Source: Myxococcota bacterium (GTDB taxonomy: Bacteria > Myxococcota > JACRCW01). Taken from it: DNA of 64,000 nucleotides. The position numbers were made by a program, and so were the translations under genes. The notes beneath the pieces were generated by a model. That model was not told the DNA's origin and ran no database searches. It saw only the letters and a list, made by a program, of their open reading frames with translations. The stretch's first letter is position 1, and each line of letters begins with the position of its first letter. The stretch lies in NCBI GenBank assembly GCA_040752415.1, contig JBFMGU010000018.1, positions 1-64,000 on the forward strand, given 5' to 3'. Below are positions 40,888 through 61,599 of this stretch, piece after piece.

Positions 40888-40988
40888 CCTGACGCAAGGA
40901 CTGCGTCCCGCCTCGCGCGCAGCCTGCGCCGCCGCAACTCCTGCGCCGTGGAATGCGCGCTCCCGAGGGAAAACCGGGGGGCTGGTCT

Positions 40989-41004
40989 CGGCACGGACCG
41001 TGCT
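40989..41004 (+). promoter_or_regulatory. Candidate sigma54 promoter of the sqr operon
   Basis: CGGCACGGACCGTGCT: GG(40990-91)-N10-GC(41002-03), perfect GGCAC; ATG at 41017. Confidence 0.55.
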
Positions 41005-41016
41005 GAAGCGCGCGGC

Positions 41017-42246: not shown

Positions 42247-42248
42247 TC

Positions 42249-43256
42249 ATGGTCACCACGTCGAACAACGTCTCCGAGCTGGCCGCGCTGCGCCAGGAGA
42301 TTGCGGAGCTCCGTGCCGAGATGCGCAGCGTGCTCGAGCACCAGCGCGCCCGCGACGAGCTGATGGAGGAGCTGACGCCCATCCTCAAGGAGGTGCTGCA
42401 GGTGGGCACCGAGAAGCTCGCGGTGCTGGAGCAGCGGGGGTACTTCGCCTTCGGGCGCGCCGGGCTGGACGTGGTGGACCGCGTGGTCACCGGCTTCACG
42501 CCGGAGGACGTCACCGCGCTGGGTGAAAACGTCGTGCGCATCCTGCAGACGGTGCGCGGCATGACCCAGCCTGCGGTGCTGGCCATCGCGGATGAGGCCA
42601 CGCGTGCCGTCGAGGATGCGCAGGGTGGTGAGCCCATGAGCTGGCGCGGTCTCCTCCACGCCTCGCGGGATGAGGACGTGCAGCGCGGGCTGGCCACCAT
42701 GGTGGCGGTGCTGCGTCGGGTGGGGCAGGCCGCGCACCGTGGCGCCGGCAGCCGCAAGGAGGGCTCGGAGCGGTTGCGCCAGATGCTCGCCCCCAGCCGC
42801 AGGAAGGACGCTGTGACGACGACACCGCCGCCGCCCCGGCCCGCTCCCCTCGCCGCGCGACCGCTCAACGAGCACCTGGCGCCCAGCCGCAAGCCCGCGG
42901 ACTTCTGTGAGGCCCGCCCGGTGAAGGGCGACCGTCCCGCCAAGGGCCCCGTCATCTCGCTGCCCGGCGTCACGTTGGACGCGGAGGGCTTCCTTGCCGA
43001 CGCCAACGCCTGGAACCAGGACGTGGCGGTGCAGATGGCCCGCGCGCTCAACATGCCCGCGCTCACCGAGACGCATTGGAAGGTCATTGAGTTCGCGCGC
43101 AAGGAGTTTGCGGAGACGGGCAAGAGCCCCAACGTGCGACGCCTCTCGGTGGGCTCCGGCGTGGGCGTCAAGGAGCTCTACGCGCTCTTCCCCGACGCGC
43201 CCGGCAAGACCGCCGCCCGCGTGGCCGGCATTCCCAAGCCCGGTGGCTGTCTCTGA
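42249..43256 (+). CDS. DUF1641 domain fused to TusE/DsrC/DsvC sulfur-relay domain
   Basis: MSWRGLLHASRDEDVQRGL...LRRVG (DUF1641-like); LDAEGFL...W...LTETHWKVI...LYALFP..P...AARVAGIPKPGGCL (DsrC fold). Confidence 0.85.
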   Translation: MVTTSNNVSELAALRQEIAELRAEMRSVLEHQRARDELMEELTPILKEVLQVGTEKLAVLEQRGYFAFGRAGLDVVDRVVTGFTPEDVTALGENVVRILQTVRGMTQPAVLAIADEATRAVEDAQGGEPMSWRGLLHASRDEDVQRGLATMVAVLRRVGQAAHRGAGSRKEGSERLRQMLAPSRRKDAVTTTPPPPRPAPLAARPLNEHLAPSRKPADFCEARPVKGDRPAKGPVISLPGVTLDAEGFLADANAWNQDVAVQMARALNMPALTETHWKVIEFARKEFAETGKSPNVRRLSVGSGVGVKELYALFPDAPGKTAARVAGIPKPGGCL

Positions 43257-45574: not shown

Positions 45575-48500
45575 ATGGGTGAGCCGATTGCGGTGGTGGG
45601 CCTGGGTTGCGTGCTTCCCGACGCGCTGAACGTCCGCGCGTTCTGGGACAACACGCTGCGTGGTCACTCCGCCATCCGCGAGCTGCGCGGCGGGGGCTGG
45701 GAATGGACGCGCTACCACGACCCCAACCCCTCCGCGCCCGACCGTGCGCACTGCATCCTGGGCGCGCGCGTCGAGGATTGGGTGTTTGACTGGCGTCGCT
45801 TCCGCATGCCGCCCGCCGAGGCGGAGAGCATCAACCCGCTGCAGTTGATGGTGTTGGATGCCGGTACGCAGGCGCTGGAGGGCGTGAAGGTCATTCCGCG
45901 CGAGCGGGCCGGATTGTTCCTGGGCGGCACCGGGCTCGGCTGGCAGCGCGACAGCGGTCTGCGCATCCGCATGCAGGACCTCGTCGACGCGCTGGAGCAG
46001 AGCGAGGCGTATGGTCGGCTGGCGCCCGCGCAGCGGCAGGCGGTGCTGGAGGGCGCGCAACGCAGCCTGGATGCGCGGCTCAAGCCGGTGAGTGAGGACA
46101 ATGTCGTCGGGGCCAGCGCTTCCGTGGCGGCCGGGCGCATTGCCATGCACTTTGACCTCAAGGGCCTGCACTATTCGGTCGACGCGGGCTTTGCCAGCTC
46201 GTTGGCCGCGCTGGAGTGCGGCGTGCGCGCGCTGCGCGACGGGACGCTGGACCTCTCCGTGGTGGGCGGCGTCAGCGAGCTGCTCTCGCCGCTGGAGCTG
46301 GTGGCGTTCTCCAAGATGGGCGGGCTGGCGCAGCAGAAGGTGGCGCCCTTTGACGCTTCCGCCGAGGGCACGCTGCTCGGGGAGGGCACGGTCATCTTCG
46401 CGCTCAAGCGCCTCTCCGACGCCGAGCGCGACGGCGACCTCATCCACGCCGTGGTGCTGGGCGTGGGCGGCTCCTCCGACGGACACGGCAAGGCCCTGGT
46501 GGCGCCCCGTGCCGAGGGGCAGGCGCTGGCCATGCGGCGCGCGTACGACGACGGCGAGGTCTCTCCGCACACCGTGGGCTTCGTGGAGTGTCACGCCACC
46601 GGCACCCAGGTGGGCGACGCCAGTGAGGTGCGCGCGTTGGCCCGCATCTACGCGGGCGGCGCGAGGAGCAGCGTGGCGCTCGGGTCGGCCAAGCCTTTCG
46701 TGGGGCACCTGCGCGCCGCGGCGGGCGCGGTGGGCATGTTGCGCGCCGTGCTGGCGTTGCAGCACCGCACCGTGCCGGCGCAGATCGCGTTCAAGACGCC
46801 CAATCCCGCGCTGGAGCTGGACAGCACGCCGTTCTACGTGCCCACCGCCAACACGGCGCTCACGTCGCTGGGTGACGCGGAGCTGCCGCGCGCGGCGGTG
46901 AGCGCATTTGGTTTTGGTGGCAACAACTTCCACGCGGTGCTGGAGGCCCATGCCGGTGCGCGCCCGCGCCCCGCGCGTCGGAAGGTGTCCACCGACGAGC
47001 CGATTGCCGTGGTGGGCATGGGCGGCATCTTCCCCGGCGCGGAAGGTGTCGACGCGTTCTGGCGCATGATCATGGACGGGCGCGACACCACGCGTGAGGT
47101 TCCCAAGGACCGCTGGGACATCGACCGGCACTGGTCCAACGACCCCACCCGCCTGGACCGCAGCTACAGCCGACTGGGTTGCTTCCTGGAGAAGCTGCCC
47201 TCGCTCGAGGAGCGCTGGCGCATCCCGCCCTCCGCGGCGGAGAGCCTGGACCCCAGCCACCTGCTGGTCTTGCGCTGCGCCGAGGAGGCGCTCAGCGACG
47301 CGCGCTACACGCCGGGACGCTGGGACAAGGACCGCGTGGCGGTGATGCTGGCCTTCCTTCCCTACCAAGGGAAGAAGTTCCTGGCCGACATCCGCGTGAA
47401 CTTCCAGGAATACGCCGCGGACCTCGCCCACGCGCTCAAGCAGGCCGGCGTCTCCGACGAGCAGGCCCACGCGGTGCTCGCCGAGACGGAGGTGCGCTTC
47501 AAGCGTGCGCTGCCGGGCATCAGCGAGGACACGCTCACCGGCTACCTCGGCAGCGTCAACGCCGCGCGGGTCACCAAGCTGCATGACTTCCACGGCCCGC
47601 ACTTCGTCGTCGACAGTGCGTGCGCCTCCACCCACGCCGCGCTGCACGCCGCCGTGTCCGCGCTGCGCCACCGCACCGCCGACGTGGTGCTCTCCGGTGG
47701 CGTGTGGTGCGACATGATGCCGGAGTTCTTCATCGCGGCGTGTCGCTTCAACGCGCTCTCCGCCACCGGCATCACCCCGTTCTGCGCGCGCGCCGACGGG
47801 TTCATCCCCGGAGAGGGCGCCGGCATCTTCGTGCTCAAGCGCCTCTCCGACGCCGAGCGTGACGGAGACAAGGTCCACGCCGTCATCCGCGCGGTGGCCG
47901 GGTCCTCAGACGGGCGTGGTCGCAGCGTGTTGGCGCCCAACCCCGCGGGCGAGGCCATGGCCATGACGCGCGCGTTGGAAGCGGCGGGCGTGGACGCCAC
48001 CAGCGTGGACTACGTGGAGTGCCACGGCACCGGGACCGCGCTGGGCGACGTGGTGGAAGTGGACGCGTTGACGCGCGCGTATGGAAAGGGGCGCCCGCGG
48101 CCGCTGCTCATCGGCTCGGTGAAGAGCAACATTGGACACCTGAACGCCGCCGCCGGTGCGCCCGCGCTCATCAAGACCGCCCTGGCGGTGCGCGACGGAG
48201 TCATTCCTCCCTCGCTGAAGGTGGAGACGCCCAACCCGCAGATTGATTTTGCCTCTGGGCCCGTCAGCGTTGTCACCACGGCGCGACAGTGGGTCATGGC
48301 GCCGGGGCAGCCGCGTCGCGCTGGCATCAGCGGATTTGGCGTGGGCGGCACCAACATGCACCTGGTGGTGGAGCAGTACCTGCCGCAGGGGGCGCAGAAG
48401 CCACGGGCGGAGTCGGCGGTCGTCGTCACGGAGGCAGCCGGGCCGCAGATTGCCGTGGTGGCGGGTGCGGACCTGCAGGGTTGCGTGGAGGCGTTGGGCG

Positions 48501-51500
48501 CGCTGGCCACGGAGCAGCGTGATGCGGCACCGGGCGCGTTTGCCATGGCGCTGCAGCGCACCCACACCACGCCGCCGCGCGGGCCCGACCGGGTGCGCGT
48601 GGCCATCGTGGCCAGCACGCCCGTCGAGCTTTTCAAGCGTCACACGCTGCTGCAGTCCGCGGTGCGCAACGGGCATGACCTGGCGTTGCTGCGCCAGCAG
48701 GGCATCTGCGTGGGGATGCTGGACCCGTCCCTGAAGGTGACGGTGGCCTTCCCCGGCCAGGGTCCCCAGTACGTGAACATGCTGCGCGAGGCGGCGGCGC
48801 GTTTCCCCACGCTGCGCGAGGTGCTGCAGCGCGTGGACGTGGCCTACCAGCGGCTGGCGGGTCGCACGCTGACCAGCGCGTTCATCGTCGAGGACGCCAG
48901 CAATTGGCAGCAGCGTGACGAGGACATCCACTGCGCCGTGTTTGCCGTGAACTGCGCGCTGTACGAGCTGTTGCGCGCGCACGGGCTCAAGGCGGACAGC
49001 GTGCTGGGCCAGAGCGCCGGCGAGCTCTCCGCGCTGGTGGCGGCGGGCGTGCTCTCGCTGGAGGACGGACTGGGTGCGGTGCGGGAGCGCACCCTCAGCG
49101 TGCTTGCGCTGCAGACCGCTGACCCGGGGCAAATGGTGGCGCTGGCCTGCTCGGCGCAGACCGCGGCGCGACTGATGGAGGGACTGCCCGGCTACGCGGC
49201 GCTGGCGGCGGACAACGCGCCCAACGCGTGCATCGTCTCCGGCGCGCGCGCGGCCATGACGGCGTTGGTGGAGCGCTGTCAGCAGCAGGGCGTGGAGGCC
49301 ACCGTGCTGGCGGTGAGCCACGCGTACCACTCGCAGATGATTGCCGGCGCGCGGGACCGCTACCTGCGCCTGCTGCGCACGCTGACCTTCCGGGAGCCGC
49401 AGTGCGAGATCTTCTCGACGATCACCGGGGGCTCCCTGGCGGGCATGCGCGCGGCGGATTGGCCCGAGCACCTGGCCAGCCAGTTCGTGCTGCCGGTGGC
49501 GCTGCGTCAGGCGGTGGAGGCGGCGTACGCGTCGGGGACGCGCATGTTCGTGGAGTGTGGACCCAAGTGGCCGCTGACCACGTTCATTGGCGAGATCCTG
49601 GAGGGACGTCCCCACGCCGCGCTGGCCACCATCCATCCCAAGGTGGGGGAGGTGGAGCTGCTGCAGCGTGCGCTGGCGTTCCTGCACGTGCACGGCGTGG
49701 CCTCGCTGGCGCCTGCGGCCCCCACGGTGCTCACCGCTCCTCCCGCCCCGACGAGCTCCTTGCCGCCCATGCCCGCCACCGGCCCCACCATCAGCGTGCC
49801 CCCGCCCGGCGACGTGGTGGCGCTGTTGCGCTCCATGCGCACGCTGATTGACGGGTTCCTCCAGCCGCTGGAGTCCGCCGCGCCGGGACGTGCGCCCAGT
49901 GGCGTGGAGGCGGTGCAGGCCGTGCAGGCCATGCGCGAGGCGGTGCAGGTGTTGGAGCGCGTATCCACCCCGCCGCTTGGCGTCAGTCGGCCGCCCGCGC
50001 CGGCCTCGCAGCGACCCGCTCCGTCGAGCCCGCCCGCCGCGCCCGCCCCGGTGACGACGGGAACACCCGCTCCCGGACCCGACCACGCGGCCACGGTGCT
50101 GGCGCGCCTCAAGGCCAACGTCATCCGCAAGACGGGCTATCCCGCGGAGATGCTCGAGGACAATCTCGACCTCGAGGCGGACCTGGGCATCGACACCGTC
50201 AAGCAGGTGGCCATCCTGGGCGAGACGCGCGCCCAGCTGGGCGTGGCCGCGGATCCCAACTTCAAGCTGCGCGACCACAACACGCTGCGCAAGATGGCGC
50301 AGTATCTCGTCGGCAGACTGGGTGGTGCCGTCGCGGTTGCGCCCGCGCCCGCACCCGTGGCTCCGGCTCCCGTCGTGGCGCCGTCGCCGGCGCAGGGCGG
50401 GGAGCGTGAGGTGGTGCGCGCGCAGGTGTTGGCCCACGTCATGCGCAAGACGGGCTACCCGGCGGAGATGCTGGAGGAGAATCTCGACCTCGAGGCGGAC
50501 CTGGGCATCGACACCGTCAAGCAGGTGGCCATCCTGGGCGAGGTGCGCGTCCAGCTTGGCCTGCCGCAGGACCCCACCTTCAAGCTGCGCGACCACAACA
50601 CGCTGGCCAAGGTGGTGGACCACTTCACGCGTCGCCTGCAGGCGCAGTCGCGCCCCGTCCCGCCGCCAGCCATCACCACCCCCGCGCGGGGCACGCCCGC
50701 TCCCGCCGCCGCGCGCCAGGTGCGCCAGGAAGCGCTGGACCAGGTGCTGGGCACGTTGAAGGCCAACGTGATGCGCAAGACCGGCTACCCGCCGGAGATG
50801 CTGGAGCTGGACCTCGATCTCGAGGCGGACCTGGGCATCGACACCGTCAAGCAGGTGGCCATCCTCGGCGAGACGCGCGCCCAGCTCGGGCTTGCCACGG
50901 ACCCCAACTTCAAGCTGCGCGAGACCAACACGCTGCGCAAGATGGGCCAGTATCTCGTCGGGAGACTGGCGGGCGCGGCGCCGCGTGATCGCACACCCGC
51001 GCGCACCGAGATTCCGGTGGTCCCCGCTCCCGCGCCGGCTCCTTCCGCGCCCGTGGTGTCGTCGGAAGAGACCTGGAACCAGGTGCACCAGCTGGTCATC
51101 CAGCAGCTCATTCGCAAGACGGGCTACCCCGCGGAGATGCTCGAGCTGGACCTCGACCTCGAGGCGGACCTGGGCATCGACACCGTCAAGCAGGTGGCGA
51201 TCTTTGGCGAGGTGCGCGCGCAGCTGAAGCTGGCCCAGGATCCCAACTTCCGCCTGCGCGACCACACCACGCTGCGCAAGATCATCAGCCACTTCGCCTC
51301 GCGCCTGCAGCCCGCCACCCCCCCGCCCACAACGACGGCGCCCAGCGCACCTCCTCCCGTGGCAGCGACTCCGGCGGCACCCGAGTTCCAGCGCGTGGGC
51401 GAGCCCGTGCACGTGACCTCCCGCGCGCCAGGCACCGCGTTCATCTGCGGCGGCGCCGAGCTGCGGGTGGTCACCATGGCGCGCTGCGCGCAGATCATGA

Positions 51501-52282
51501 TGGACGCCGTGGTGAAGGGCTCCGGCGGCGTCCCCGTGGCGTTGCTGGGTTTGCGCTCCGGCGCGCCCGCGCTCGTCGAGGATACCGGGGCGTTGCTGCT
51601 GGAGGTGCAGGCGCGCGCGGAGAGCGGCCAGGTGGAGACGCGCCTGGTCTCCGCCTCCGGCGCGGTGCACTTCGTGGGTCGGGTGGAGCTGGCCGCGGAA
51701 CGTCCGCAGGCTGCGTTGAACCTGGCTTCTCCCGCCGTGCGCGTCGGCGTGGACCCGCGCAACCGCGCGCGCAATGGCGTGGCGCTGTTGCAGGCGGTGG
51801 GGCGGGTGGATCCGGGCTCTCGCACGCCGCCAGTGGTGGACTGGGCGCAGCAGCTCCGCTTTGACCTGCTGGCCGGTGGCATGACCGTGCCGGAGTCCGC
51901 GGGCAATCCCGCCGCGTGCATCGCCGCCGCGCTCGACGGTGCCGGAGCGATCGCCTCGTTCGGCTGGTACGCGCTCACCGGGGCGTTCCACGTGCCCTGC
52001 GCGCTGGAGAGCCTGCGCTTCCACGCCCTCCCAAGCCCGGGGGCGGAGCTGCGTTTCCACGTGCAACTGGCGCCGTTCGCCCAGGGAGCGTGGCACGCGC
52101 ATGCGCTGATTCTCGACGGAGAAGGCCGGGTGCTGGGGGAGCTGCAGGGCTTGACCGGTGTGCGCGTGGGACCCACTGCGGGGGCGGTGTGGCAGGGGTT
52201 GGACGTCGACGGAACGGCCGTGGCGTGGCAACGCTTCACGCAACAGCTTTCCGGACCCGTGATCGATGGTGAGGACCATTGA
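45575..52282 (+). CDS. Iterative type I PKS / PfaA-related subunit A: KS(Cys->Phe)-KS-AT-ACPx4(Thr)-degenerate DH
   Basis: KS1 DAGFASS/ECHATGT/GHL; KS2 DSACAST/ECHGTGT/GHL; AT FPGQG, GQSAG, HAYH; four LEADLGIDTVKQ; C-terminal hot-dog-like region lacking the HxxxGxxxxP motif. Confidence 0.92.
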   Translation: MGEPIAVVGLGCVLPDALNVRAFWDNTLRGHSAIRELRGGGWEWTRYHDPNPSAPDRAHCILGARVEDWVFDWRRFRMPPAEAESINPLQLMVLDAGTQALEGVKVIPRERAGLFLGGTGLGWQRDSGLRIRMQDLVDALEQSEAYGRLAPAQRQAVLEGAQRSLDARLKPVSEDNVVGASASVAAGRIAMHFDLKGLHYSVDAGFASSLAALECGVRALRDGTLDLSVVGGVSELLSPLELVAFSKMGGLAQQKVAPFDASAEGTLLGEGTVIFALKRLSDAERDGDLIHAVVLGVGGSSDGHGKALVAPRAEGQALAMRRAYDDGEVSPHTVGFVECHATGTQVGDASEVRALARIYAGGARSSVALGSAKPFVGHLRAAAGAVGMLRAVLALQHRTVPAQIAFKTPNPALELDSTPFYVPTANTALTSLGDAELPRAAVSAFGFGGNNFHAVLEAHAGARPRPARRKVSTDEPIAVVGMGGIFPGAEGVDAFWRMIMDGRDTTREVPKDRWDIDRHWSNDPTRLDRSYSRLGCFLEKLPSLEERWRIPPSAAESLDPSHLLVLRCAEEALSDARYTPGRWDKDRVAVMLAFLPYQGKKFLADIRVNFQEYAADLAHALKQAGVSDEQAHAVLAETEVRFKRALPGISEDTLTGYLGSVNAARVTKLHDFHGPHFVVDSACASTHAALHAAVSALRHRTADVVLSGGVWCDMMPEFFIAACRFNALSATGITPFCARADGFIPGEGAGIFVLKRLSDAERDGDKVHAVIRAVAGSSDGRGRSVLAPNPAGEAMAMTRALEAAGVDATSVDYVECHGTGTALGDVVEVDALTRAYGKGRPRPLLIGSVKSNIGHLNAAAGAPALIKTALAVRDGVIPPSLKVETPNPQIDFASGPVSVVTTARQWVMAPGQPRRAGISGFGVGGTNMHLVVEQYLPQGAQKPRAESAVVVTEAAGPQIAVVAGADLQGCVEALGALATEQRDAAPGAFAMALQRTHTTPPRGPDRVRVAIVASTPVELFKRHTLLQSAVRNGHDLALLRQQGICVGMLDPSLKVTVAFPGQGPQYVNMLREAAARFPTLREVLQRVDVAYQRLAGRTLTSAFIVEDASNWQQRDEDIHCAVFAVNCALYELLRAHGLKADSVLGQSAGELSALVAAGVLSLEDGLGAVRERTLSVLALQTADPGQMVALACSAQTAARLMEGLPGYAALAADNAPNACIVSGARAAMTALVERCQQQGVEATVLAVSHAYHSQMIAGARDRYLRLLRTLTFREPQCEIFSTITGGSLAGMRAADWPEHLASQFVLPVALRQAVEAAYASGTRMFVECGPKWPLTTFIGEILEGRPHAALATIHPKVGEVELLQRALAFLHVHGVASLAPAAPTVLTAPPAPTSSLPPMPATGPTISVPPPGDVVALLRSMRTLIDGFLQPLESAAPGRAPSGVEAVQAVQAMREAVQVLERVSTPPLGVSRPPAPASQRPAPSSPPAAPAPVTTGTPAPGPDHAATVLARLKANVIRKTGYPAEMLEDNLDLEADLGIDTVKQVAILGETRAQLGVAADPNFKLRDHNTLRKMAQYLVGRLGGAVAVAPAPAPVAPAPVVAPSPAQGGEREVVRAQVLAHVMRKTGYPAEMLEENLDLEADLGIDTVKQVAILGEVRVQLGLPQDPTFKLRDHNTLAKVVDHFTRRLQAQSRPVPPPAITTPARGTPAPAAARQVRQEALDQVLGTLKANVMRKTGYPPEMLELDLDLEADLGIDTVKQVAILGETRAQLGLATDPNFKLRETNTLRKMGQYLVGRLAGAAPRDRTPARTEIPVVPAPAPAPSAPVVSSEETWNQVHQLVIQQLIRKTGYPAEMLELDLDLEADLGIDTVKQVAIFGEVRAQLKLAQDPNFRLRDHTTLRKIISHFASRLQPATPPPTTTAPSAPPPVAATPAAPEFQRVGEPVHVTSRAPGTAFICGGAELRVVTMARCAQIMMDAVVKGSGGVPVALLGLRSGAPALVEDTGALLLEVQARAESGQVETRLVSASGAVHFVGRVELAAERPQAALNLASPAVRVGVDPRNRARNGVALLQAVGRVDPGSRTPPVVDWAQQLRFDLLAGGMTVPESAGNPAACIAAALDGAGAIASFGWYALTGAFHVPCALESLRFHALPSPGAELRFHVQLAPFAQGAWHAHALILDGEGRVLGELQGLTGVRVGPTAGAVWQGLDVDGTAVAWQRFTQQLSGPVIDGEDH
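50090..51310 (+). repeat. Four tandem ACP-coding repeats separated by Pro/Ala linkers
   Basis: CTCGAGGCGGACCTGGGCATCGACACCGTCAAGCAGGTGGC recurs four times at about 320-340 nt spacing. Confidence 0.92.
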
Positions 52283-55200
52283 TGAGCAAAGGCGGTGAGG
52301 CCCAACAACTCGCGGTGGTGGGCATGGCCTGCCGCCTTCCGGGCGCACCCAACCTGGAGGCGTTCTGGCGCCTGCTCGTCGAGGGCACGGTGGCGCTGGA
52401 GCCGCTGCAGCCCGACCGCTGGGATCCCGCCACCTACGCGGATGAGCTGCCCGACGGACGCGCGCAGAGCTTCCTGGGTGGCGTGTTGAAGGACTTCCGC
52501 GTCGACTTCGCCGCGCTGCACCTCCCGCCGCTGCAGACCGAGCGCCTGCACCGCATGGAGAAGGTGGCGGTGGCGACCATGACGGAGGCGCTGCGCGACG
52601 CCCAGGCACGCGGGGCCGCGTGGGAGGGGAAACGCGGGCAGATCTTCGTGGCGGCCAGCACGCTGGCTCCCGACACGCTCACCGATCACGGTCGCCGCAT
52701 CCGACGCTACGAGCTGGCCGCGCCCATCCGCGAAGCGTTGGACGCCGTGGTGCCGCAGCAGGCCAACGACGCCGACGAGATTGTCCAGCAGCTCTTCAAC
52801 GTGGCCGCGCCGCCGGTGGACCCGGACTCCCTGCAGAGCACCGCCAGCCTCATCGGCGGTCGCGTGGCGCACCTGTTCAACTTCGACGGTGGCCACCTCG
52901 CCGTCGACGGAGGCATGTCCTCCAGCCTGGCCGCGCTGCACCGTGCCGCGGTGGCGCTGCAGACGGGTGCGTGTGATCTCGCGCTGGTGTGCGGCCTGTC
53001 TCCGCTCCTCACCGCGTCGTCGGTGCTGGCGTTCGCGCACCACGGCCTGCTCACCACCGACCGGCCCCGTCCCTTCCAGCCCGACGCCAATGGCACCACG
53101 CTGGGAGAGGGCGCGGGCGCGCTGGTGTTGATGCGCCGTGACGAGGTGCCCGCGGAGCGGACCTACGCGGTTCTCGAGGGACTGGGCAGCGGACACGCCA
53201 GCAGCGCCAGCGCGCTCAAGGACATCACCGCGCAGGCGGCCACGGCGGCGTTGGCGCAGGCAGGCTGTGGTCCCGACGAGGTGGCGGTGGTGGAGTCCCG
53301 CGCGTGCGGCGTGGCCGGCGAGGATTCCGCGGAGTCCGAGGGGCTGGCCATTGCGTACGGCAGTGCCAGCCGCGCCGCGCCCCTGCTCGTCACCTCGACG
53401 GTAGGCCAGCTGGGCTTCCTGCAGGCCGCGGGCGGGACCGTGGCGCTGCTCAAGGCGTGCCTGGCCATTTCCCGTGGGAGCTGGCCGGCCTCTGCCGTGG
53501 CGGGCGCACCCCGTCGCGTGGGCGTCAGCGACGCGGGATTGGGGCCGTTGGCCTACCACGCCATCCTCGCGCATCCGTCGGTGGAGACGGTGGCGACGGA
53601 GAAGCGCGTGGTGCGTCGTCGTCCGGAGCCGGACGCGGTTGCGGTGGTGGGCGCGGGACTCCTGGTGCCGCAGGCCAATGACGTGGAGACGTTCTGGCGC
53701 AACGTGCTCAACAAGGTGGACGCCATCTCCGACCTGCCGGCGGACCGCTTCGACGTCGACCGGCTGGTGGGCGCCAGCCCGGACGCGGGCGCGGTGCTCA
53801 AAACGCGGCTCGCCGGTGTCGTCGACATTCCCGCGTACGACCCGCTGCGCTTTGGTCTCCCGCCCCACACCGCCGCGGCCATGGACCCCGCGGTGGCGCT
53901 CTCCCTGCTCAGCGCGGAGCAGGCGCTGGCCCAGGCGCAGTACGGACCGGGAAAGTGGGATCCCCGACGGGTGCAGGTGGTGATGGGGCAGCTGCCCATG
54001 CGCGCCAAGGAAATGCAGATGGAGGCGCGGCTGCTCTTTGCCGGGCACCTGGTGCTCTCCGCGGAGGCGCTGCGGGAGGCGGGCCTGGCCGATGGCGACG
54101 TGCAACGCGTCATCCAGCTGGCGCGCGAGCTCTACAACCGCCGCGTCCCGCCCATCTCCCCGGAAATGCTCGAGGCGCGCACCGGCCTCACCTGCGCCCA
54201 GCGCGTGGCCAATGCGTGGGGCTTCCACGGCGGCGCGCTTTCCGTCGACGCGGCCTGCGCCTCGTCGTTGGCGGCGGTGCGCATCGGGGTGGAGTCGCTG
54301 CGACTGGGCGAGGCCGACGTCGTGGTGGCGGGCGGTGTGGCCTACAACCTGCTGCCGGAATACTACATCAGCCTCAGCATGCTCGGCGTGCTCTCGCCGC
54401 GCGGGGCGCCCCCGTTTGACGTCGGTGCGGATGGGTTCGTGCCCGCGGAGGGCGGTGGCGCGGTGGTGCTGCGTCGCCTCAAGGATGCGCAGCAGGCCGG
54501 CGAGAAGGTGCTGGCGGTCATCCGTGGCGTGGGCAGCGCGGGCGACGGGCGCAGTCCCTCCATCTACGCACCCAGCGGCGAGGGCTACCGTCGCGCCATC
54601 CAGCGCGCGTTGCAGTCCGCGGGCGTCGGCGCGTCGGACATTGACTACGTGGAGGCACACGGCGGCGGAACGCGACGTGGCGACCAGGCGGAGACCGAGG
54701 CCTACGCCGCCATCTACGGCCAGCGCGACGCCGGGGCTCCCATGGTGGTGGGCACGGTGAAGTCGCAGATTGGCCACCAGAGCTCCGCGGCGGGAATCGT
54801 GGGGCTCATCAAGACGGCGCTGGCGCTCGAGCGTCGCGTCATCCCGCCCAGCAACTGCGACGCGCCTCCCCACGCCGAGCTGCCCTTCGGCCGCGTGCCG
54901 CTGGACCTGGCCGCCGAGCCGCGCCCCTGGACCACCTCCGGTCGACGTCGACGCGCCGGCGTGAGCGCATTTGGCCTGGGCGGCGTGAACTACCACGTCA
55001 TCCTCGAGGAGCCGGAGCGCAACCCGCGAGATGAGGTGACACCCGAGCAGCAACCGCCCGCGCACCTGCCCAGCCGTGGCGCCCGCGCGGACCGCTTCCT
55101 CGTCGAGCTGGTGCCGGTGGCACTGCCGGAGCGCCCGCCGCGGCTGAACCTGTTGGGCCGTCACGTCGTCGTGGTGGCGGACGCGGGAAAGCTCTGGCCC

Positions 55201-57588
55201 GCGTTCCAGGCGCGCCTGACCCAGCGCGGCGCCGTTGTCTCCATCCTGCCCGCCGGTACTCCCGACCTGGAGGCGGCCATCCGTGATGCGCGCGCCGCCC
55301 ACGGCGTGGTGCACGGCGTGTTGGACCTCAGCACCTTTGCTCCGCCGTCGGAGTCCCCGCCCACCTCGGACGCGCTGGCCCGGCAGGTGCTGGAGGTGCA
55401 GGCGCGCGCTTTCACCGTGTTGCGCGCGGTCTACCCGGACCTGGCCGACGCCGCGCCCCAGACCGCGTTCTACGGCGCGGTGACGTCGATGGGTGGCGAC
55501 CTGGGCCTCATGGTTCGCACTGGTGGCAACGTGCTGGGCGCCACGATGTTGGGGTGGGCCAAGGGCCTCAAGCAGGAGCTGCCCGGCGTGGTGGCCAAGG
55601 GCCTGGACTTTGACCCGCACCAACGTGCCGACGAGGTGGCGACCCAGGCGTTGCGCGAGATCGAGGATGCCAACCCGCGCATGGAGGTGGGCTTTGCCGG
55701 GCGCCGCTTTGGCGTGAACCTCCGACGGGCGAGCTTCCCCGAGGAGGCGCCCGCGGTCAGCGGCATCACGCGTGGCGACGTGTACGTGTTCTCCGGTGGC
55801 GGCCGCGGCGTGGTGTTCGAGTGCGCGTGCGCGCTGGCGCGCCAGGGGGCCATTGCCGTCGTCACCGGCCGCACCGCGCCGCCGCGCGGCGACGAGTCCT
55901 GGCTGCACCTCGACGAGGCCGCGTTTGCCGCGTACCGCACCGAGGAGATGGCGCGACGTCGCCGCGCGGATCCCACGCTCACCCCCGCGCGCTTTGCCCA
56001 GGAGTTCGACAACCTGGTGCGCCAACGCGAGCTGTTCCGCAACCTGCAGCGCGCCCGGGCCCAGGAGCTCCCGCTGCACTACGAGGTCTGCGACGTCACC
56101 GACCGCGCGCAGGTGGACGCGCTGGTGGCGCGCGTGGTGGCCAGCCACGGGCGCGTCGACGGGCTCATCCACGGCGCCATGGTGGAGTGGTCGCGCAGCC
56201 TGCCGTCCAAGTCGCCGCAGATCGTCGAGCGCACCATGGCCGCCAAGGTGGTGGGGCTCATCCAACTCGTCGAGGCGCTGCGGGAGGAGAAGCTCGGCAC
56301 CATCCTGTGCTTCGGGTCGGGCGCGGGGCGGTTCGGCAACCGCGGCCAGTCCGACTACTGCGCGGCCAATGCGCAGATGGCGGCGCTGCTACCCGTGCTG
56401 GCGGCGCGTCATCCCGCACGACCGCGCGCCATGACGGTGGATTGGACCGCGTGGCAGGAGGTGGGCGCCGCGGTGCAGAACCCCGACGTGGCGCGGCTGG
56501 TGGAAGCCACCGGCGTGACCGCCATCCGCCCGCAGGAGGGGACCTACTGGTTCCTGCGTGAGCTCACCGCGGCCGACGAGGGCGAGTCCGTCATCTTCGA
56601 GGAGCGCATGCTCCATGACTGGCCCACGCTGGGCAGCGGCGGCGAGGGCAGCGGGGAGGACGCCGTGCTCCTCGACGACCGCGGCATGCCATTGGTGCCC
56701 GGTGAGTGGCCGCTGGTCGACCGCGTGCTGCAGCGCGAGGAGGGCCGGGTCCGCTTTGCGCGTCGTCTCGAGGTGGACAAGGACGCGTTCCTGGATCAGC
56801 ACCGCCTGTACCGCGTGCCCATCGTCCCGGCCACGTTCGGCTGCGAGATCCTCGCCGAGGCCGCCGCGCTGTGCTCCCCGGGCTGGGATGTGGCCGAGGC
56901 GCACGACGTGGTCATTGACGTGCCCATGAAGCTGTTCCGCGAGCAGCCGCTGCTCATCCGCGCCTCCGCCACCGTGGTGGAGGAGAGTGGCGACGTGCGC
57001 GTGGTGCAGGCGGAGACGCATTCCCACCTGTTCCTCAAGGGGCGGCCGTTGGAGGAGCGCACGCATCACCGCGGTCGCTTCCTGCTGCGGAGACAGCGCC
57101 AGCCCGCGTCCAAGGTGGCCTTCCCAGACGTGCCCGGCGTGGTGCGCTCACGCTCGTTCTTCCACCTGGCCAAGGATCCCGTGACGCTGGGGCCGCTGTT
57201 CTGTCGCGCGGAGTGGATCCGCGTCACCGTGGATTCCGTGGTGGGAACCGTGCGTGCACCCCGCCAGCGCGACATCCTGGCCCGCACCGCCTATCCCGTG
57301 TTCCAGGTGGACCCGCTCCTGATGGACGCCGCGTTCCAGGTTGCCGCCAACTGGGACGGACACCACCACGGCAACGTCTCCATCCCCGTCGGCGTGGGCA
57401 AGCTGCTCTTCGGTCGCACGCGGGGGCGCGGAGAAGCGGCGCGTGTGCTGGCCACGGTGCGCCAGGTGGCCAATCCCGACGTGGTCTACGACATCATGGT
57501 GGCCGGCGAGAACGACGACCTCCTGATGCAGATTGGCGGCCTGCGCCTGCGTCGCGTCAGCCCCGCCGACGATCCCTCCGAGGCATGA
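52282..57588 (+). CDS. Type I PKS subunit B: degenerate KS-KS-KR-DH
   Basis: KS3 DGGMSSS/ESRACG/GFL; KS4 DAACASS/EAHGGGT/GHQ; KR SGGGRGV...GRFGNRGQSDYCAAN; DH FLDQHRLYRVPIVP and DPLLMDAAFQ; TGATG coupling. Confidence 0.92.
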   Translation: MSKGGEAQQLAVVGMACRLPGAPNLEAFWRLLVEGTVALEPLQPDRWDPATYADELPDGRAQSFLGGVLKDFRVDFAALHLPPLQTERLHRMEKVAVATMTEALRDAQARGAAWEGKRGQIFVAASTLAPDTLTDHGRRIRRYELAAPIREALDAVVPQQANDADEIVQQLFNVAAPPVDPDSLQSTASLIGGRVAHLFNFDGGHLAVDGGMSSSLAALHRAAVALQTGACDLALVCGLSPLLTASSVLAFAHHGLLTTDRPRPFQPDANGTTLGEGAGALVLMRRDEVPAERTYAVLEGLGSGHASSASALKDITAQAATAALAQAGCGPDEVAVVESRACGVAGEDSAESEGLAIAYGSASRAAPLLVTSTVGQLGFLQAAGGTVALLKACLAISRGSWPASAVAGAPRRVGVSDAGLGPLAYHAILAHPSVETVATEKRVVRRRPEPDAVAVVGAGLLVPQANDVETFWRNVLNKVDAISDLPADRFDVDRLVGASPDAGAVLKTRLAGVVDIPAYDPLRFGLPPHTAAAMDPAVALSLLSAEQALAQAQYGPGKWDPRRVQVVMGQLPMRAKEMQMEARLLFAGHLVLSAEALREAGLADGDVQRVIQLARELYNRRVPPISPEMLEARTGLTCAQRVANAWGFHGGALSVDAACASSLAAVRIGVESLRLGEADVVVAGGVAYNLLPEYYISLSMLGVLSPRGAPPFDVGADGFVPAEGGGAVVLRRLKDAQQAGEKVLAVIRGVGSAGDGRSPSIYAPSGEGYRRAIQRALQSAGVGASDIDYVEAHGGGTRRGDQAETEAYAAIYGQRDAGAPMVVGTVKSQIGHQSSAAGIVGLIKTALALERRVIPPSNCDAPPHAELPFGRVPLDLAAEPRPWTTSGRRRRAGVSAFGLGGVNYHVILEEPERNPRDEVTPEQQPPAHLPSRGARADRFLVELVPVALPERPPRLNLLGRHVVVVADAGKLWPAFQARLTQRGAVVSILPAGTPDLEAAIRDARAAHGVVHGVLDLSTFAPPSESPPTSDALARQVLEVQARAFTVLRAVYPDLADAAPQTAFYGAVTSMGGDLGLMVRTGGNVLGATMLGWAKGLKQELPGVVAKGLDFDPHQRADEVATQALREIEDANPRMEVGFAGRRFGVNLRRASFPEEAPAVSGITRGDVYVFSGGGRGVVFECACALARQGAIAVVTGRTAPPRGDESWLHLDEAAFAAYRTEEMARRRRADPTLTPARFAQEFDNLVRQRELFRNLQRARAQELPLHYEVCDVTDRAQVDALVARVVASHGRVDGLIHGAMVEWSRSLPSKSPQIVERTMAAKVVGLIQLVEALREEKLGTILCFGSGAGRFGNRGQSDYCAANAQMAALLPVLAARHPARPRAMTVDWTAWQEVGAAVQNPDVARLVEATGVTAIRPQEGTYWFLRELTAADEGESVIFEERMLHDWPTLGSGGEGSGEDAVLLDDRGMPLVPGEWPLVDRVLQREEGRVRFARRLEVDKDAFLDQHRLYRVPIVPATFGCEILAEAAALCSPGWDVAEAHDVVIDVPMKLFREQPLLIRASATVVEESGDVRVVQAETHSHLFLKGRPLEERTHHRGRFLLRRQRQPASKVAFPDVPGVVRSRSFFHLAKDPVTLGPLFCRAEWIRVTVDSVVGTVRAPRQRDILARTAYPVFQVDPLLMDAAFQVAANWDGHHHGNVSIPVGVGKLLFGRTRGRGEAARVLATVRQVANPDVVYDIMVAGENDDLLMQIGGLRLRRVSPADDPSEA

Positions 57589-58310
57589 GCACCTGCGTCC
57601 TGGCCACGCGCGTCGTGACCGAGGTGGACGCCCTCGAACGCGAGCTCGCCGAGCTGGAGCAGCGCCCCGTCTTCGCGCGCGGCACCGTCAAACGCCGCGG
57701 GGAGCACGCTGCCGGTCGCCTCGCCGCGCACCATGCGCTCACGCTGTTGCGCGGAGCGGGAGAGCGTCGGGCCATCCTCACCGCGGAAGGGCCGGAGCAG
57801 GGGCGACCGCGCGTCATCCAGCTCCCGCACGGCCAGGACCTCGACGTCACCGTGTCCATCACGCACGCGGATGGCCTGGCCGTTGCACTGGCGTGCGAGG
57901 TGGCGGCGGGGTTGGACCTCGTCACGCTTGAGGACCATGGCGAGGCGTTTGCGCGTGAGGCCTTTGCGCCCGGTGAGCTGGCGGCGTGGCGTGGCTTGTT
58001 CTCCCACGACGTCCTGGCGACGTGCGCCGCGTTTGCCTTCAAGGAGAGCGTGCTCAAGTGGTTGCGGGTTGGGATGGGCTTGTCGCTGCAGGGCCTGCGT
58101 GTCCTCCCGCGCAGCCTGGACCGCCGCACCGCGCCCTCCACCCTCCGCCTCGACGTGGAAGGAGCTGGAACACCCTGCCCGGAGCTGGCCGGATGGCTCT
58201 GGACGGAGCACACGCGGGTCCTGGCGCTGGTGTCGGAGGATCACCGCTTGCGCATCCTGGAGCCCGCGGGAGGCCTTCGTGGGTACTTCGGCTCGGCTAC
58301 GGGCGCATAG
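57585..58310 (+). CDS. 4'-phosphopantetheinyl transferase superfamily protein
   Basis: AGRLAA, GRP, VSITHA, GLDLV, FAFKESVLK; ATGA overlap with the PKS-B stop. Confidence 0.85.
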   Translation: MSTCVLATRVVTEVDALERELAELEQRPVFARGTVKRRGEHAAGRLAAHHALTLLRGAGERRAILTAEGPEQGRPRVIQLPHGQDLDVTVSITHADGLAVALACEVAAGLDLVTLEDHGEAFAREAFAPGELAAWRGLFSHDVLATCAAFAFKESVLKWLRVGMGLSLQGLRVLPRSLDRRTAPSTLRLDVEGAGTPCPELAGWLWTEHTRVLALVSEDHRLRILEPAGGLRGYFGSATGA

Positions 58311-58357: not shown

Positions 58358-58407
58358 GCAGTTGCATCAACCCTGCGTAACTAGGTGGGCACGTGGGAGG
58401 GAGCGTC

Positions 58408-60222
58408 GTGGAACTGGAAACCGTTCGACTGACGGCGGGCGCGGGCATGGAGGAGCGGGGTGAGCCGCCGGTGTTCCTGGTGGCCTATCACCTCGGCGGT
58501 GCGGCGGTGGGGCGGCTGCCGGATGGCGGCGCGGTCGTGGTGGGGCGCAGCTCGCCGGCGGACCTGGTCGTGGCGGACCGCTCGCTCTCACGGCTGCACG
58601 CGCGTTTCCGTCGTCACCACGGGCAGGTGCTGGTGGAGGACCTGGGTTCCACCAACGGAACGCAGGTCAATGACAACCCCATCCAGAGTGAGACGCCGCT
58701 CGCGCCCAGCGACGTGGTCTCGCTCGGCTCGGTGCGCATCCGCCTGGTGGCGCACTCCACCACCGCGCGCGCCGCGGGTGCGCTGGAGAGCCACGAGCAC
58801 TTCCAGGACCGCGTCCACGACGAGCTGGTGCGCGCGCGCCACTTCGGGCGGACCGCGGCGGTGCTGGCGGTGCGCTCCACGCGCGTGGGGGAGGACGTGG
58901 CGGAGCTGGCCGCGCGACTGGCCACCCATCTCACCGCGGTGGACCGCGTGGCGGTGTACAGCAGCGGGGTCCTGGAGGTGCTGCTCGCGGAAACCTCGTC
59001 GGAGCGTGCCCAGGAGCTGGCCGCGCAGCTGGTGAAGGCCGGGCCCTTGCGCGTGGGCGTGGCCGTCTATCCGCACACCGCCACCACGGCGGAAGCCCTG
59101 CTGGAGGCCGCGCGCGGCGCGTTGCGACAGACCTCCGAGCGGCACGCGGTGGCCCTGGCGCCGGAGGCTGCGCACACCGTGGAAGCGCCCGCCCAGCCCG
59201 CGCCGCGCGGCGTGTTGCGCAGCCAGGCCATGCGGGAGCTGGACGAGACGGTGGACCGCCTGCACCGCTCGACGATCCCGGTGCTGCTCTGGGGTGAGAC
59301 CGGCGTGGGCAAGGAGGTCATGGCCCGCACCATCCATGAGCGCTCCCCGCGCGCGCGCCAGCCCATGGTGTGCATCAACTGCGGCGCCATCCCTGCGCAT
59401 CTGCTCGAGAGCACGCTGTTTGGCCATGAGAAGGGCGCGTTCACCGGCGCCACCCAGCAGCACCGCGGCGTGTTCGAGGCGGCGCACGGCGGCACCGTGT
59501 TCCTCGACGAGATTGGCGAGCTTTCCGCGGCGGCGCAGACCGCGTTGCTGCGCGTGCTGGAGACGCGGCGCATCACCCGCGTGGGGTCGACCAAGGAGAT
59601 CGAGGTGGACGTGCGCATCATTGCCGCCACCCACCGCGACCTCGAGGAGATGAGCGCCCAGGGCACCTTCCGCTCCGACCTGCTCTTCCGCCTCAACGCC
59701 ATGACGCTGCGCATCCCGCCGCTGCGCAACCGCAAGGAGGAGATTCTTCCATTGGCGGAGCGCTTCCTCGCCGAAGCCAACACGCTGGTAGGGCGGCAGC
59801 TGCAGGGGTTCATGCCCGCGGCACGCGACTTGCTCCTCGCCTATTCGTGGCCCGGCAACGTCCGGGAGCTGAAGAACGCCATCGAACGCGCCGTGGTGAT
59901 TGCCCGGTTGGACACCATCAGCGTGGAGGACCTCCCGGAGCGTGTGCGTCAGGCGGTGCCGCCGCCCACGCCGGAGCCGGAGCTGCAGTCCACTCCTCCC
60001 GACGATGATGGACCGACCATGGAGATCAGCATGGTCGCGGAGCTGGATTTCAAGGCGTTGGTGCAACGCTACGAGACCCGGCTCATCGTGCAGGCCCTGC
60101 ACGCTACCGGTGGCAACCAGACGCTGGCCGCCCGGCGCCTGCGCATGCCGCTGCGCACGCTGGTCCACAAGATCAAGACGCTGGGAATCAAGAAGCTGGG
60201 TTACGCGGCGCCCGGCGAGTGA
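58408..60222 (+). CDS. Sigma54-dependent enhancer-binding protein: FHA - degenerate GGDEF - AAA+ - Fis HTH
   Basis: GR...SRLHA...DLGSTNGT (FHA); GETGVGKE, GAFTGA, FLDEIGE, WPGNVREL; GNQTLAARRL; GGAGG RBS. Confidence 0.93.
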   Translation: MELETVRLTAGAGMEERGEPPVFLVAYHLGGAAVGRLPDGGAVVVGRSSPADLVVADRSLSRLHARFRRHHGQVLVEDLGSTNGTQVNDNPIQSETPLAPSDVVSLGSVRIRLVAHSTTARAAGALESHEHFQDRVHDELVRARHFGRTAAVLAVRSTRVGEDVAELAARLATHLTAVDRVAVYSSGVLEVLLAETSSERAQELAAQLVKAGPLRVGVAVYPHTATTAEALLEAARGALRQTSERHAVALAPEAAHTVEAPAQPAPRGVLRSQAMRELDETVDRLHRSTIPVLLWGETGVGKEVMARTIHERSPRARQPMVCINCGAIPAHLLESTLFGHEKGAFTGATQQHRGVFEAAHGGTVFLDEIGELSAAAQTALLRVLETRRITRVGSTKEIEVDVRIIAATHRDLEEMSAQGTFRSDLLFRLNAMTLRIPPLRNRKEEILPLAERFLAEANTLVGRQLQGFMPAARDLLLAYSWPGNVRELKNAIERAVVIARLDTISVEDLPERVRQAVPPPTPEPELQSTPPDDDGPTMEISMVAELDFKALVQRYETRLIVQALHATGGNQTLAARRLRMPLRTLVHKIKTLGIKKLGYAAPGE

Positions 60223-60237
60223 GACGAGGCCAACGCC

Positions 60238-61599
60238 ATGCGAAAGCACGTGACCCCGCAGGACGTGGCGGGTGAGGAGGAGATTGCGCGCGGAGCCACG
60301 AGCTCGGTGCGTCGGGCCCGCGACGAGGACCTGGAGCGCTGGGTGGCGCGCAAGGTGCTCCACGCGGAGCGCGCGCGTGAGCCGGTGGAGGTGGAGCGCT
60401 TCAACCGCGAGGCACGACTCACCGCGCAGCTGGAGCATCCCCACGTGGTGCCCGTCCACGCGCTGGGCATCCAGGAGGACGGCACGCCGTGGTTCACCAT
60501 GCAGCGCGTGGAGGGCCGTGCGCTCCATGAGCTGTTGCCCACCAGCCTGCTGCAGCAGAAACCGGAGGAGGCCCACGCGCTGCTGGAGGTGTTCCTCAAG
60601 GTCTGCGACGCCGTCTCCTTCGCGCACAGCATGGGAATCATCCACCGCGACATCAAGCCGCAGAACGTGGTGGTGGGGAGCTTTGGGCAGGTCTACCTGA
60701 TGGACTGGGGCACGGCGCAGCGGCTGGGCGCGGCGCACCAGGATCCTCCCGGCACGGTGGTGGGAACGCTGGCGTATCTCTCACCGGAGCAGGCGCGCGG
60801 GGACACTGCCGCGCTGGATGAGCGCACCGACGTGTTTGGCCTGGGCGCGGTGCTCTACCAGATCCTGACCCTAAGCCCGCCTTATTCCGCGCGAAGCGTC
60901 AAGGAGATGCTGATCCAGGCCCGGAACGGCCTCATCCGCGACCCGCAGAGCGTGGCCACCGGCGTGACGCTGCCGCGGGAACTGTGTCGCATTGCCATGA
61001 AGGCCCTGAACGTGGATCCCCGGGCGCGCCATGCCAGCGCCGCGGCGCTGAAGCGGGACGTGCAGACCTTCGTGCGCAGCGGGTTCCTGCGCTTCCGCAC
61101 CGAGGAGTACGCGGCCGGCGAATACATTGTGCGGGAAGGTGGCCAGGGCGACGCCGTGTACATCATCACCTCCGGTCGTTGTGAGGTGAGCAAGGAGGTC
61201 TCCGGCCAGGAGAACGTGCTGCGCACCATGGAGGAGGGGGACGTGTTCGGGGAGATGGCCGCGCTGACCGGGCCGCCGCGGACCGCCACCGTGCGTGCGC
61301 TCACCCCCGTCACCGTGGCGGTGGTGGGACGGGAGGACCTGGAGGAGAAGCTGGCCATGGACACGTGGGCCGGCAAGCTGGTCACCACGCTGGCGCAACG
61401 CTTCCGGGAGCTGGACCAGCGCTACCAACACGCGGTGCGTGAGCGGGATGAAGCGTTGCTCGCCGTGCGCGCGCTGACGTTGTTGCGCCGGGAGCCAGGT
61501 ATTTCGTCGGAGCGGCTGTGCCAGGTGCTGGTGTTGGAGACGGGGCGCAGCGCGGAGGATGTCACGGCGGTGTTGCAACGCGCGGCAATCCTGTGTTAG
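60238..61599 (+). CDS. Ser/Thr protein kinase with C-terminal cNMP-binding domain
   Basis: VARK, HRDIKPQN, DWG, GTLAYLSPEQ, DVFGLG; FGEMAALTGPPRTATV. Confidence 0.92.
   Translation: MRKHVTPQDVAGEEEIARGATSSVRRARDEDLERWVARKVLHAERAREPVEVERFNREARLTAQLEHPHVVPVHALGIQEDGTPWFTMQRVEGRALHELLPTSLLQQKPEEAHALLEVFLKVCDAVSFAHSMGIIHRDIKPQNVVVGSFGQVYLMDWGTAQRLGAAHQDPPGTVVGTLAYLSPEQARGDTAALDERTDVFGLGAVLYQILTLSPPYSARSVKEMLIQARNGLIRDPQSVATGVTLPRELCRIAMKALNVDPRARHASAAALKRDVQTFVRSGFLRFRTEEYAAGEYIVREGGQGDAVYIITSGRCEVSKEVSGQENVLRTMEEGDVFGEMAALTGPPRTATVRALTPVTVAVVGREDLEEKLAMDTWAGKLVTTLAQRFRELDQRYQHAVRERDEALLAVRALTLLRREPGISSERLCQVLVLETGRSAEDVTAVLQRAAILC

Follow-up and report, generated by a model that had tools for sequence, protein, structure and literature searches.

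A phosphopantetheinyl transferase in translational coupling with a polyketide synthase operon, and threonine in place of the acceptor serine in its tandem carrier domains

The window analyzed here, a stretch of 64,000 nucleotides from a Myxococcota bacterium (NCBI GenBank assembly GCA_040752415.1, contig JBFMGU010000018.1, positions 1 to 64,000 of the forward strand), encodes an operon of two polyketide synthase (PKS) genes, the second of which overlaps the gene of a 4'-phosphopantetheinyl transferase (PPTase), designated P0001. The four tandem acyl carrier proteins (ACPs) of the first synthase, PKS-A, have threonine at the position of the serine that receives the phosphopantetheine (Ppant) arm, and the pairing of such carriers with a PPTase is conserved among related loci. 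P0001 is probably an EntD-like PPTase dedicated to the threonine-type ACPs of the operon, with threonine as the acceptor residue. To our knowledge, serine is taken as the sole residue for the attachment of phosphopantetheine, both in textbooks and in annotation rules that look for an active-site serine.

The larger finding is a widespread family of carriers with threonine at this site and with co-inherited PPTases, which can be tested directly; to judge from the sequences, the pairing of a threonine-type synthase with a PPTase of its own has been inherited in a wide range of phyla. More tentatively, O-phosphopantetheinyl-threonine may be a natural and widespread modification, used by a cross-phylum family of enzymes similar to polyunsaturated fatty acid (PUFA) synthases, which would have their own EntD-like PPTase since AcpS and Sfp would not load threonine. 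Taken together with threonine as the acceptor, and just as tentatively, this family may include the window operon, the dawenol-type PKSs, the 'Type R' lipid synthases, and forms from Thermoplasmatota metagenome-assembled genomes (MAGs). A sequence-only reading of the window had already connected the PPTase with the threonine-type ACPs, and this part stands; its structural argument from the PPTase motifs and its local framing were not sustained.

Threonine-type carriers and the coupled PPTase gene

All four ACPs of PKS-A read DLGIDTVKQVAI, with the core LGIDTVKQ, and their threonine aligns with the Ppant serine of DLGIDSV (PigH) and DMGIDSL (PksA ACP). The carrier region is recognized by Pfam (PF00550, 74.5 bits) and has the four-helix ACP fold. 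In the AlphaFold2 (AF2) model of the ACP (predicted local distance difference test score, pLDDT, 93.4), the threonine is the first residue of helix II. Comparison with solved ACPs gave template modeling (TM) scores of 0.72-0.87 and Foldseek E-values of 2.6e-3 and weaker; as no Foldseek match was obtained at E<=0.001, the fold was assigned from the TM scores and the root-mean-square deviation. Serine at the N-terminus of helix II, by which a carrier is recognized, was replaced by threonine in all four ACPs and in 42 of 42 aligned relatives. Among these 42 threonine-type ACPs, the glutamine of DTVKQ (Q40) is invariant as well; serine-type PUFA ACPs read DSIKR. The four ACPs of PKS-A are the only LGxDT-type carriers of the 11-Mb window genome. 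Over 48 loci, the acceptor codons for threonine are ACC (59), ACG (62), ACT (4), and ACA (3), and those of the serine-type loci are TCG (23) and TCC (8).

The open reading frame (ORF) of P0001 (57585-58310, plus strand) encodes 241 residues followed by a stop codon. Its ATG (57585-57587) overlaps the TGA of PKS-B (57586-57588) in the context ...gaggcATGAgc.... Among relatives, the frames may overlap, abut, or be fused; fusions of PKS-B with the PPTase, in G059 and G165, form frames of 2043 and 2040 aa. The overlap, the Sfp/EntD-like size, and the AGRLAA and SITH motifs had been described in the sequence-only reading, and all of them were located in the DNA or the translation.

Two PPTase half-domains lie in the single chain of P0001, as in the Sfp-type (group II) enzymes, whose chain has about 230 aa: the Pfam scores, 32.7 bits for the catalytic PF01648 (cut-off 25) and 30.3 bits for the N-terminal PF17837 (cut-off 27), are both slightly above the cut-offs. 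The AlphaFold2 model of P0001, computed from 37 sequences, has a pLDDT of 91.6 and matched human AASDHPPT, PcpS, PptT, and Sfp by Foldseek with E-values from 9e-11 to 6e-7. Full-length matches were 2c43, 7bcz, 4qjk, and 4mrt, whereas the AcpS entries cover half its length. P0001, with 241 aa and two domains, differs from the AcpS-type (group I) enzymes, which have a single domain of about 120 aa, and its likeness to AcpS is limited to the D-x-V form of motif 2. FAFKES and SITH (hShxH, P1b') place it in the F/KES (EntD-like) subfamily, an assignment made from these two motifs. Because of the Pfam half-domains and the full-length Foldseek matches, with AcpS covering half the length, we regard P0001 as a genuine two-domain Sfp-type PPTase, EntD-like and leaning to F/KES. 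A chance ORF at 57585-58310 was rejected, since the domains, the fold, and the motifs mark a real gene.

P0001 did not reach the cut-offs of the NCBIfam models EntD, HetI, and AcpT, and no NCBIfam model reached its cut-off for any threonine-linked PPTase tested. In the case of the HetI/PfaE-type model NF042922 (cut-off 370 bits), P0001 gave no match at all, other threonine-linked PPTases scored 28-45 bits, and the generic PPTases of the window genome scored 47-147 bits. The divergence that the sequence-only reading had ascribed to the PPTase agrees with its placement outside the HetI/Sfp-like clade. Table 1 gives the features of the operon.

Table 1. Features of the PKS operon and of P0001 in the window (all on the plus strand)
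Feature	Description	Position	Strand	Basis
PKS-A	2235 aa; ketosynthase (KS)-like domain without Cys (VDAGFASSL), active KS (VDSACASTH), acyltransferase (AT; GQSAGE), four ACPs, C-terminal dehydratase (DH)-like region	45575..52282	+	Pfam, motifs
ACP1	Thr1541 (ACC, 50195-50197); no Ser in the entire 83-aa domain	50087..50335	+	alignment, model
ACP2	Thr1647 (codon 50513-50515)	50405..50653	+	alignment
ACP3	Thr1757 (codon 50843-50845)	50735..50983	+	alignment
ACP4	Thr1870 (codon 51182-51184)	51074..51322	+	alignment
C-terminal 315 aa of PKS-A	PS-DH-like	51335..52279	+	language-model features (lead only)
PKS-B	1769 aa; KS-like domain without Cys (VDGGMSSSL), active KS (VDAACASSL), ketoreductase (KR), DH	52279..57588	+	Pfam, motifs
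ATGA overlap	PKS-B stop and PPTase start (translational coupling)	57585..57588	+	DNA letters
P0001	Sfp-type (EntD-like) 4'-phosphopantetheinyl transferase, 241 aa	57585..58310	+	translation, Pfam, AlphaFold2, Foldseek
Motif 2 of P0001	GLDLV; D111 kept, V113 instead of the second acid	57909..57923	+	alignment
Motif 3 of P0001	FAFKESVLKW (F/KES form); E154 and K158 kept	58032..58061	+	alignment

Pairing and distribution of threonine-type carriers

The pairing was followed from both sides. A search that started from the PPTase found 11 related loci, and all nine with enough upstream flank carry LG[IV]DTV[KR]Q ACPs. The set that started from the ACPs comprised 30 threonine-type loci of three architectures, all from Myxococcota genomes other than that of the window. 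A PPTase recognized by the family hidden Markov model (HMM) lies within a span of 20 kb in 25 of these loci, and in 27 after extension (within about 12 kb or fused). Five of the 25 are fusions, four to the synthase (L059, L078, L079, and L080) and one to PKS-B (L087), and the two added by extension have the PPTase about 11.5 kb downstream. Of the three misses, two loci are cut by contig ends and L083 has no such PPTase within about 30 kb; all three genomes have one on another contig. These counts bear out the earlier claim that the PPTase belongs with the threonine-type ACPs. Most telling is G104 (3.3 Mb, 98% complete): its carriers at E<=0.001 are only AcpP and the threonine-type ACPs of one 2909-aa synthase, and it has just two PPTases, one of AcpS size (126-aa frame) and one adjoining that synthase.

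No PPTase was found in the flanks of ten serine-type loci, not even by a generic HMM; seven of these loci seem to be mutual orthologues, and these seven are thus not independent.

Two matches of the operon-type PPTase (G363:C2:178492-179141 and G015:C582:433-1011) are interrupted: one is split over two adjacent frames, which points to a frameshift, and the other has one in-frame TGA.

When the ACP region was used in a word-based search, 119 multi-ACP synthases came up, and a regular expression counted 524 threonine and 90 serine sites in them; such a search favors sequences that have words like GIDTV in common. A profile search free of this bias covered 1.84 billion representatives, of which 7300 matched at E<=0.001, 5016 at E<=1e-10, and 1552 at E<=1e-30. 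The best 150 comprise 99 all-threonine synthases, 9 threonine-type ones with one odd or gapped domain, 2 mixed ones, and 40 serine-type ones (39 all-serine and 1 with a gapped domain); counted by domain, there are 424 threonine and 219 serine sites. Named sources include Acidobacteriota, Chloroflexi, Actinomycetota, Elusimicrobia, Thermoplasmatota MAGs, Stigmatella, and Corallococcus. A DNA pattern for G[IVM]DTVKQ occurred in 108 of 401 sampled Myxococcota genomes, from 59 of 154 genera, and a reversed control pattern occurred in none. With about 110 of the best-scoring 150 representatives being threonine-type, and with these 108 genomes, the treatment of the window as a local case in the sequence-only reading was too narrow.

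Several loci extend the range of architectures. P0080 and P0085, whose source label is Thermoplasmatota archaeon MAGs, have six threonine-type ACPs and a C-terminal PPTase domain. In L059, L078, L079, and L080, which are PfaA-like synthases with the fused PPTase at the C-terminus, the tandem array is preceded, at a distance of about 3.3-3.5 kb (roughly 1100-1200 residues), by an additional threonine-type ACP. Seven genomes (G045, G082, G115, G039, G111, G087, and G072) have loci with one or two G[IV]DTVKQ motifs only and, some 3-6 kb from these on that contig, a PPTase that matches at 95-109 bits; these loci may represent a fourth threonine-type architecture.

The acceptor reading and its alternatives

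In the reading that we favor, P0001 is coupled in its translation to a compact, iterative PKS operon, with PKS-A as KS0-KS-AT-ACPx4-DH-like and PKS-B as KS0-KS-KR-DH, and would convert the four tandem ACPs of PKS-A to the holo form. The phosphopantetheine arm of coenzyme A (CoA) would most likely be transferred to the threonine hydroxyl, because the ACPs have threonine and no serine at the N-terminus of helix II. The chemistry would be that usual for PPTases: D111, E154, and Mg2+ would activate the hydroxyl, and K158 and R45 would hold CoA.

The sequence-only reading had proposed that two changes in the PPTase motifs make room for the methyl group of threonine, which would give a threonine-only enzyme orthogonal to serine systems. 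Both changes are real. AGRLAA lies at residues 43-48, SITH at 91-94, GLDLV at 109-113, and FAFKESVLKW at 150-159; motif 2 departs from the two-acid form GxDxE in having V113 in the glutamate column, and FAFKESVLK agrees with the motif 3 pattern (W/F)xxKE(A/S)xxK. They are also conserved in a subclade of seven (P0001 of the window, P0004-P0007, L086, and L087), which includes a form fused to PKS-B. However, in the alignment of 37 PPTases, the D+2 column has Glu in 29, Val in 7, and Gly in 1, and the first residue of motif 3 is Trp in 30 and Phe in the same seven that have Val; most of the enzymes with GxDxE and W..KE are linked to the same LG[IV]DTVKQ ACPs. Archangium-type orthologues, for example, have GVDLE and W[AT][LM]KEAVLK beside LG[IV]DTVKQ ACPs, and the PPTases of the two other threonine-type architectures (dawenol-like and PfaA-like) keep GxDxE and WxxKEA beside such ACPs. 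Serine/threonine-mixed synthases with a fused PPTase also exist. Moreover, F/KES against W/KEA is a described split of the Sfp-type PPTases in PMC3909215, and PcpS (7bcz), with Glu in the V113 column (GLDVE), reads FSLKES in motif 3, so that F/KES is an ordinary subfamily signature. A link between the motif changes and threonine was thus rejected from the alignment, and we consider the motif explanation highly improbable. We read GLDLV and FAFKES, from these alignments, as drift in a small subclade that would still be functional, with an AcpS-like metal site, and not as determinants of threonine use, because D111, E154, K158, and R45 are invariant in all 37 sequences and the subclade is fused to PKS-B in two genomes. 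In the window genome itself, AcpS has GMDLVEV, which shows that the absence of an acid at D+2 also occurs in an active PPTase family. E116 (D+5) was rejected as an acid compensating for V113, since it is common family-wide, also in enzymes that keep Glu at D+2.

Two further explanations were weighed. The threonine-type ACPs might never be phosphopantetheinylated, or P0001 might be a pseudoenzyme through V113: the canonical serine and one canonical acid are both missing, and P0001 reaches only 32.7 bits on Pfam ACPS and lies below all NCBIfam cut-offs. Against this, the threonine, for which all four codons are in use, is invariant over deep divergence, the KS cysteine and the AT serine of the operon are intact by motif check, the subclade with Val is conserved and is fused to PKS-B in two genomes, and AcpS, which works as an enzyme without an acid at D+2, has the same form of motif 2. 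A PKS with five threonine-type ACPs, AIS92916.1 of Stigmatella aurantiaca Sg a15, is moreover presumed to belong to the gene cluster for dawenol; an inactive system is thus quite improbable. A generic enzyme is a somewhat stronger candidate, albeit an unlikely one. The window genome has three HetI-like Sfp-type PPTases (contigs C5, C135, and C509), and Sfp-type enzymes are often promiscuous according to PMC3909215, so these might load the threonine-type ACPs and P0001 might be redundant or have another target. What argues for the dedicated enzyme is that a PPTase has been kept adjoining or fused to the threonine-type synthases in 27 of 30 loci, and that G104 has neither another Sfp-type PPTase nor another non-AcpP carrier. 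In addition, the Ser38-to-Thr and Ser38-to-Cys mutants of spinach ACP-I lost function, as reported in PMC9310384, which fits the need for a special enzyme.

Several observations weigh against dedication to threonine as we propose it. The gene, its fold, the coupling, the threonine in the serine column, and the conserved pairing are established; that the threonine is modified, that P0001 does this, and that generic PPTases do not are what we infer from sequences and models. V113 replaces what we take to be a Mg2+ ligand position in Sfp, so the activity of P0001 may be reduced. Related genomes in the linkage samples are not independent. The two serine-type clusters of the window genome likewise have PPTases, at distances of 1.7 and about 9 kb, and a PPTase adjoining the synthase is common for serine-type pfa-like clusters according to PMC3098273; adjacency alone is thus not special to threonine. 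An A1-like PPTase at E<=1e-12 was present in 105 of the 108 motif-bearing Myxococcota genomes versus 60 of the 293 without the motif (cross-tabulated by hand), but this threshold of the A1 HMM admits HetI-like PPTases of other genera (55-61 bits), and the phyletic profile was therefore rejected as a clean test. Five synthases (P0064, P0081, P0066, P0156, and P0175) combine one serine-type ACP with four or five threonine-type ACPs; in P0064 and P0081, the serine-type ACP is first in the array and a PPTase domain is fused. G059 has two other serine carriers, yet only an AcpS-like PPTase and the fused P0001-type one, which weighs against strict specificity for threonine. From these mixed synthases with a fused PPTase and the carriers of G059, the P0001 type of enzyme may accept both serine and threonine.

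In two quick IQ-TREE trees of the PPTases, only the HetI-like clade separates (support 98), and the backbone is weak. The separation of this clade agrees with the sequence-only reading; the PPTases L101, L122, and L127, which lie beside serine carriers, fall among the threonine-linked rows on long branches with weak support, and this counts against our own reading. L100 and L125, also on long branches, fall there as well. The trees do not bear out monophyly of the threonine-linked PPTases, and we claim no single exclusive clade.

If threonine is loaded, carrier-protein chemistry gains a second acceptor residue, and genome-mining tools would be wrong to call such ACPs inactive. The threonine-type loci would then provide a ready set of PPTase/ACP pairs to test for labeling orthogonality, and such pairs could serve as labeling systems orthogonal to Sfp and AcpS.

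Known systems and the surrounding genes

The closest solved relative of P0001 by sequence is PcpS of Pseudomonas aeruginosa (7bcz; labeled EntD in the sequence table), with a profile E-value of 2.4e-11 and a Foldseek identity of 27-28%. The two share KRxxEFxAGR, SITH, F..KES, and the two-domain fold; they differ in motif 2 (GLDVE in PcpS, GLDLV in P0001), and the PcpS type acts on serine carriers, whereas P0001 adjoins threonine-only ACPs. The PfaE/HetI type resembles the window in that the PPTase is encoded with a tandem-ACP iterative synthase, and in that the window ACP matches the PfaA model TIGR02813, at 45.6 bits, far under the cut-off. The HetI-like PPTases of the window genome, which form the separate clade in the trees, have FNLSH and WTLKEA and lie beside serine-type ACPs that read LGIDSIKRVEI; P0001 has no HetI match.

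The window genome (G000) contains two more tandem-ACP synthases of this serine type, on contigs C509 (about 27-37.5 kb) and C135 (about 38.9-55 kb), with five and three ACPs. As a HetI-like PPTase lies near each of them, one genome has three PUFA-like systems, each with its own PPTase.

The 'Type R' secondary lipid synthase (Shulse and Allen 2011, PMC3098273) is described as a single pfaA-like gene that encodes 3-6 tandem ACPs, with the gene of a PPTase with P1b' hShxH downstream of it, from Acidobacteria, Elusimicrobia, and Chloroflexi. The threonine-type synthases of about 2900-3100 aa with an abutting PPTase resemble it and come from the same phyla, and the two may be equivalent. A term search of the main text of PMC3098273 gave 0 occurrences of serine or threonine. 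The two-protein KS0-KS architecture of the window differs from 'Type R'.

The PKS AIS92916.1 of Stigmatella aurantiaca Sg a15 has five tandem ACPs, all reading LGIDT(V/I)(K/T)Q, with threonine as in the window. Related loci have an A1-like PPTase 8-11.5 kb downstream. This PKS differs from the window protein in its order (ACPx5-KR, about 1270 aa, versus KS0-KS-AT-ACPx4), and its PPTase keeps GVDLE and W..KEA. We presume, as an unverified assignment, that AIS92916.1 is part of the dawenol cluster (Osswald et al. 2014). Full-text literature searches, whose coverage did not extend to the dawenol cluster paper, found no report of threonine as a natural acceptor. A 2026 paper on hybrid PUFA-like pathways confirmed serine in its own ACPs, according to PMC13291983.

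Each PKS subunit of the window has a KS-like domain in which the active-site cysteine is replaced, by Phe in PKS-A (window 46178-46204) and by Met in PKS-B (52903-52929), and an active KS follows in each. This gives an order of chain length factor (CLF) before KS in both subunits; PfaC has KS and then CLF, unlike both. The C-terminal 315 aa of PKS-A had no Pfam match; the language-model features pointed to PS-DH dehydratases (score 0.96), which is a lead only. Archangium-type loci have this region as an ORF of its own, about 317 aa long, which lies between PKS-A and PKS-B. The product of the operon is probably a polyene or a polyunsaturated lipid, because the PKS has no enoylreductase (ER) domain.

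In the orthologous operons of G395 and G059, two complete genomes, only PKS-A, PKS-B, and the PPTase are conserved. The flanking genes (TIGR02265, SDR, sigma-54 activator, and Ser/Thr kinase) are not conserved there, and we therefore left them outside the system. Directly downstream of P0001, window positions 58393-61599 encode an FHA-domain sigma-54 activator and a Ser/Thr kinase with a cNMP-binding domain. Upstream of the operon, a 339-aa ORF (42237-43256) combines DUF1641 with a C-terminal DsrC-like domain (96.9 bits) and adjoins a pyridine-nucleotide-disulphide oxidoreductase (40948-42246).

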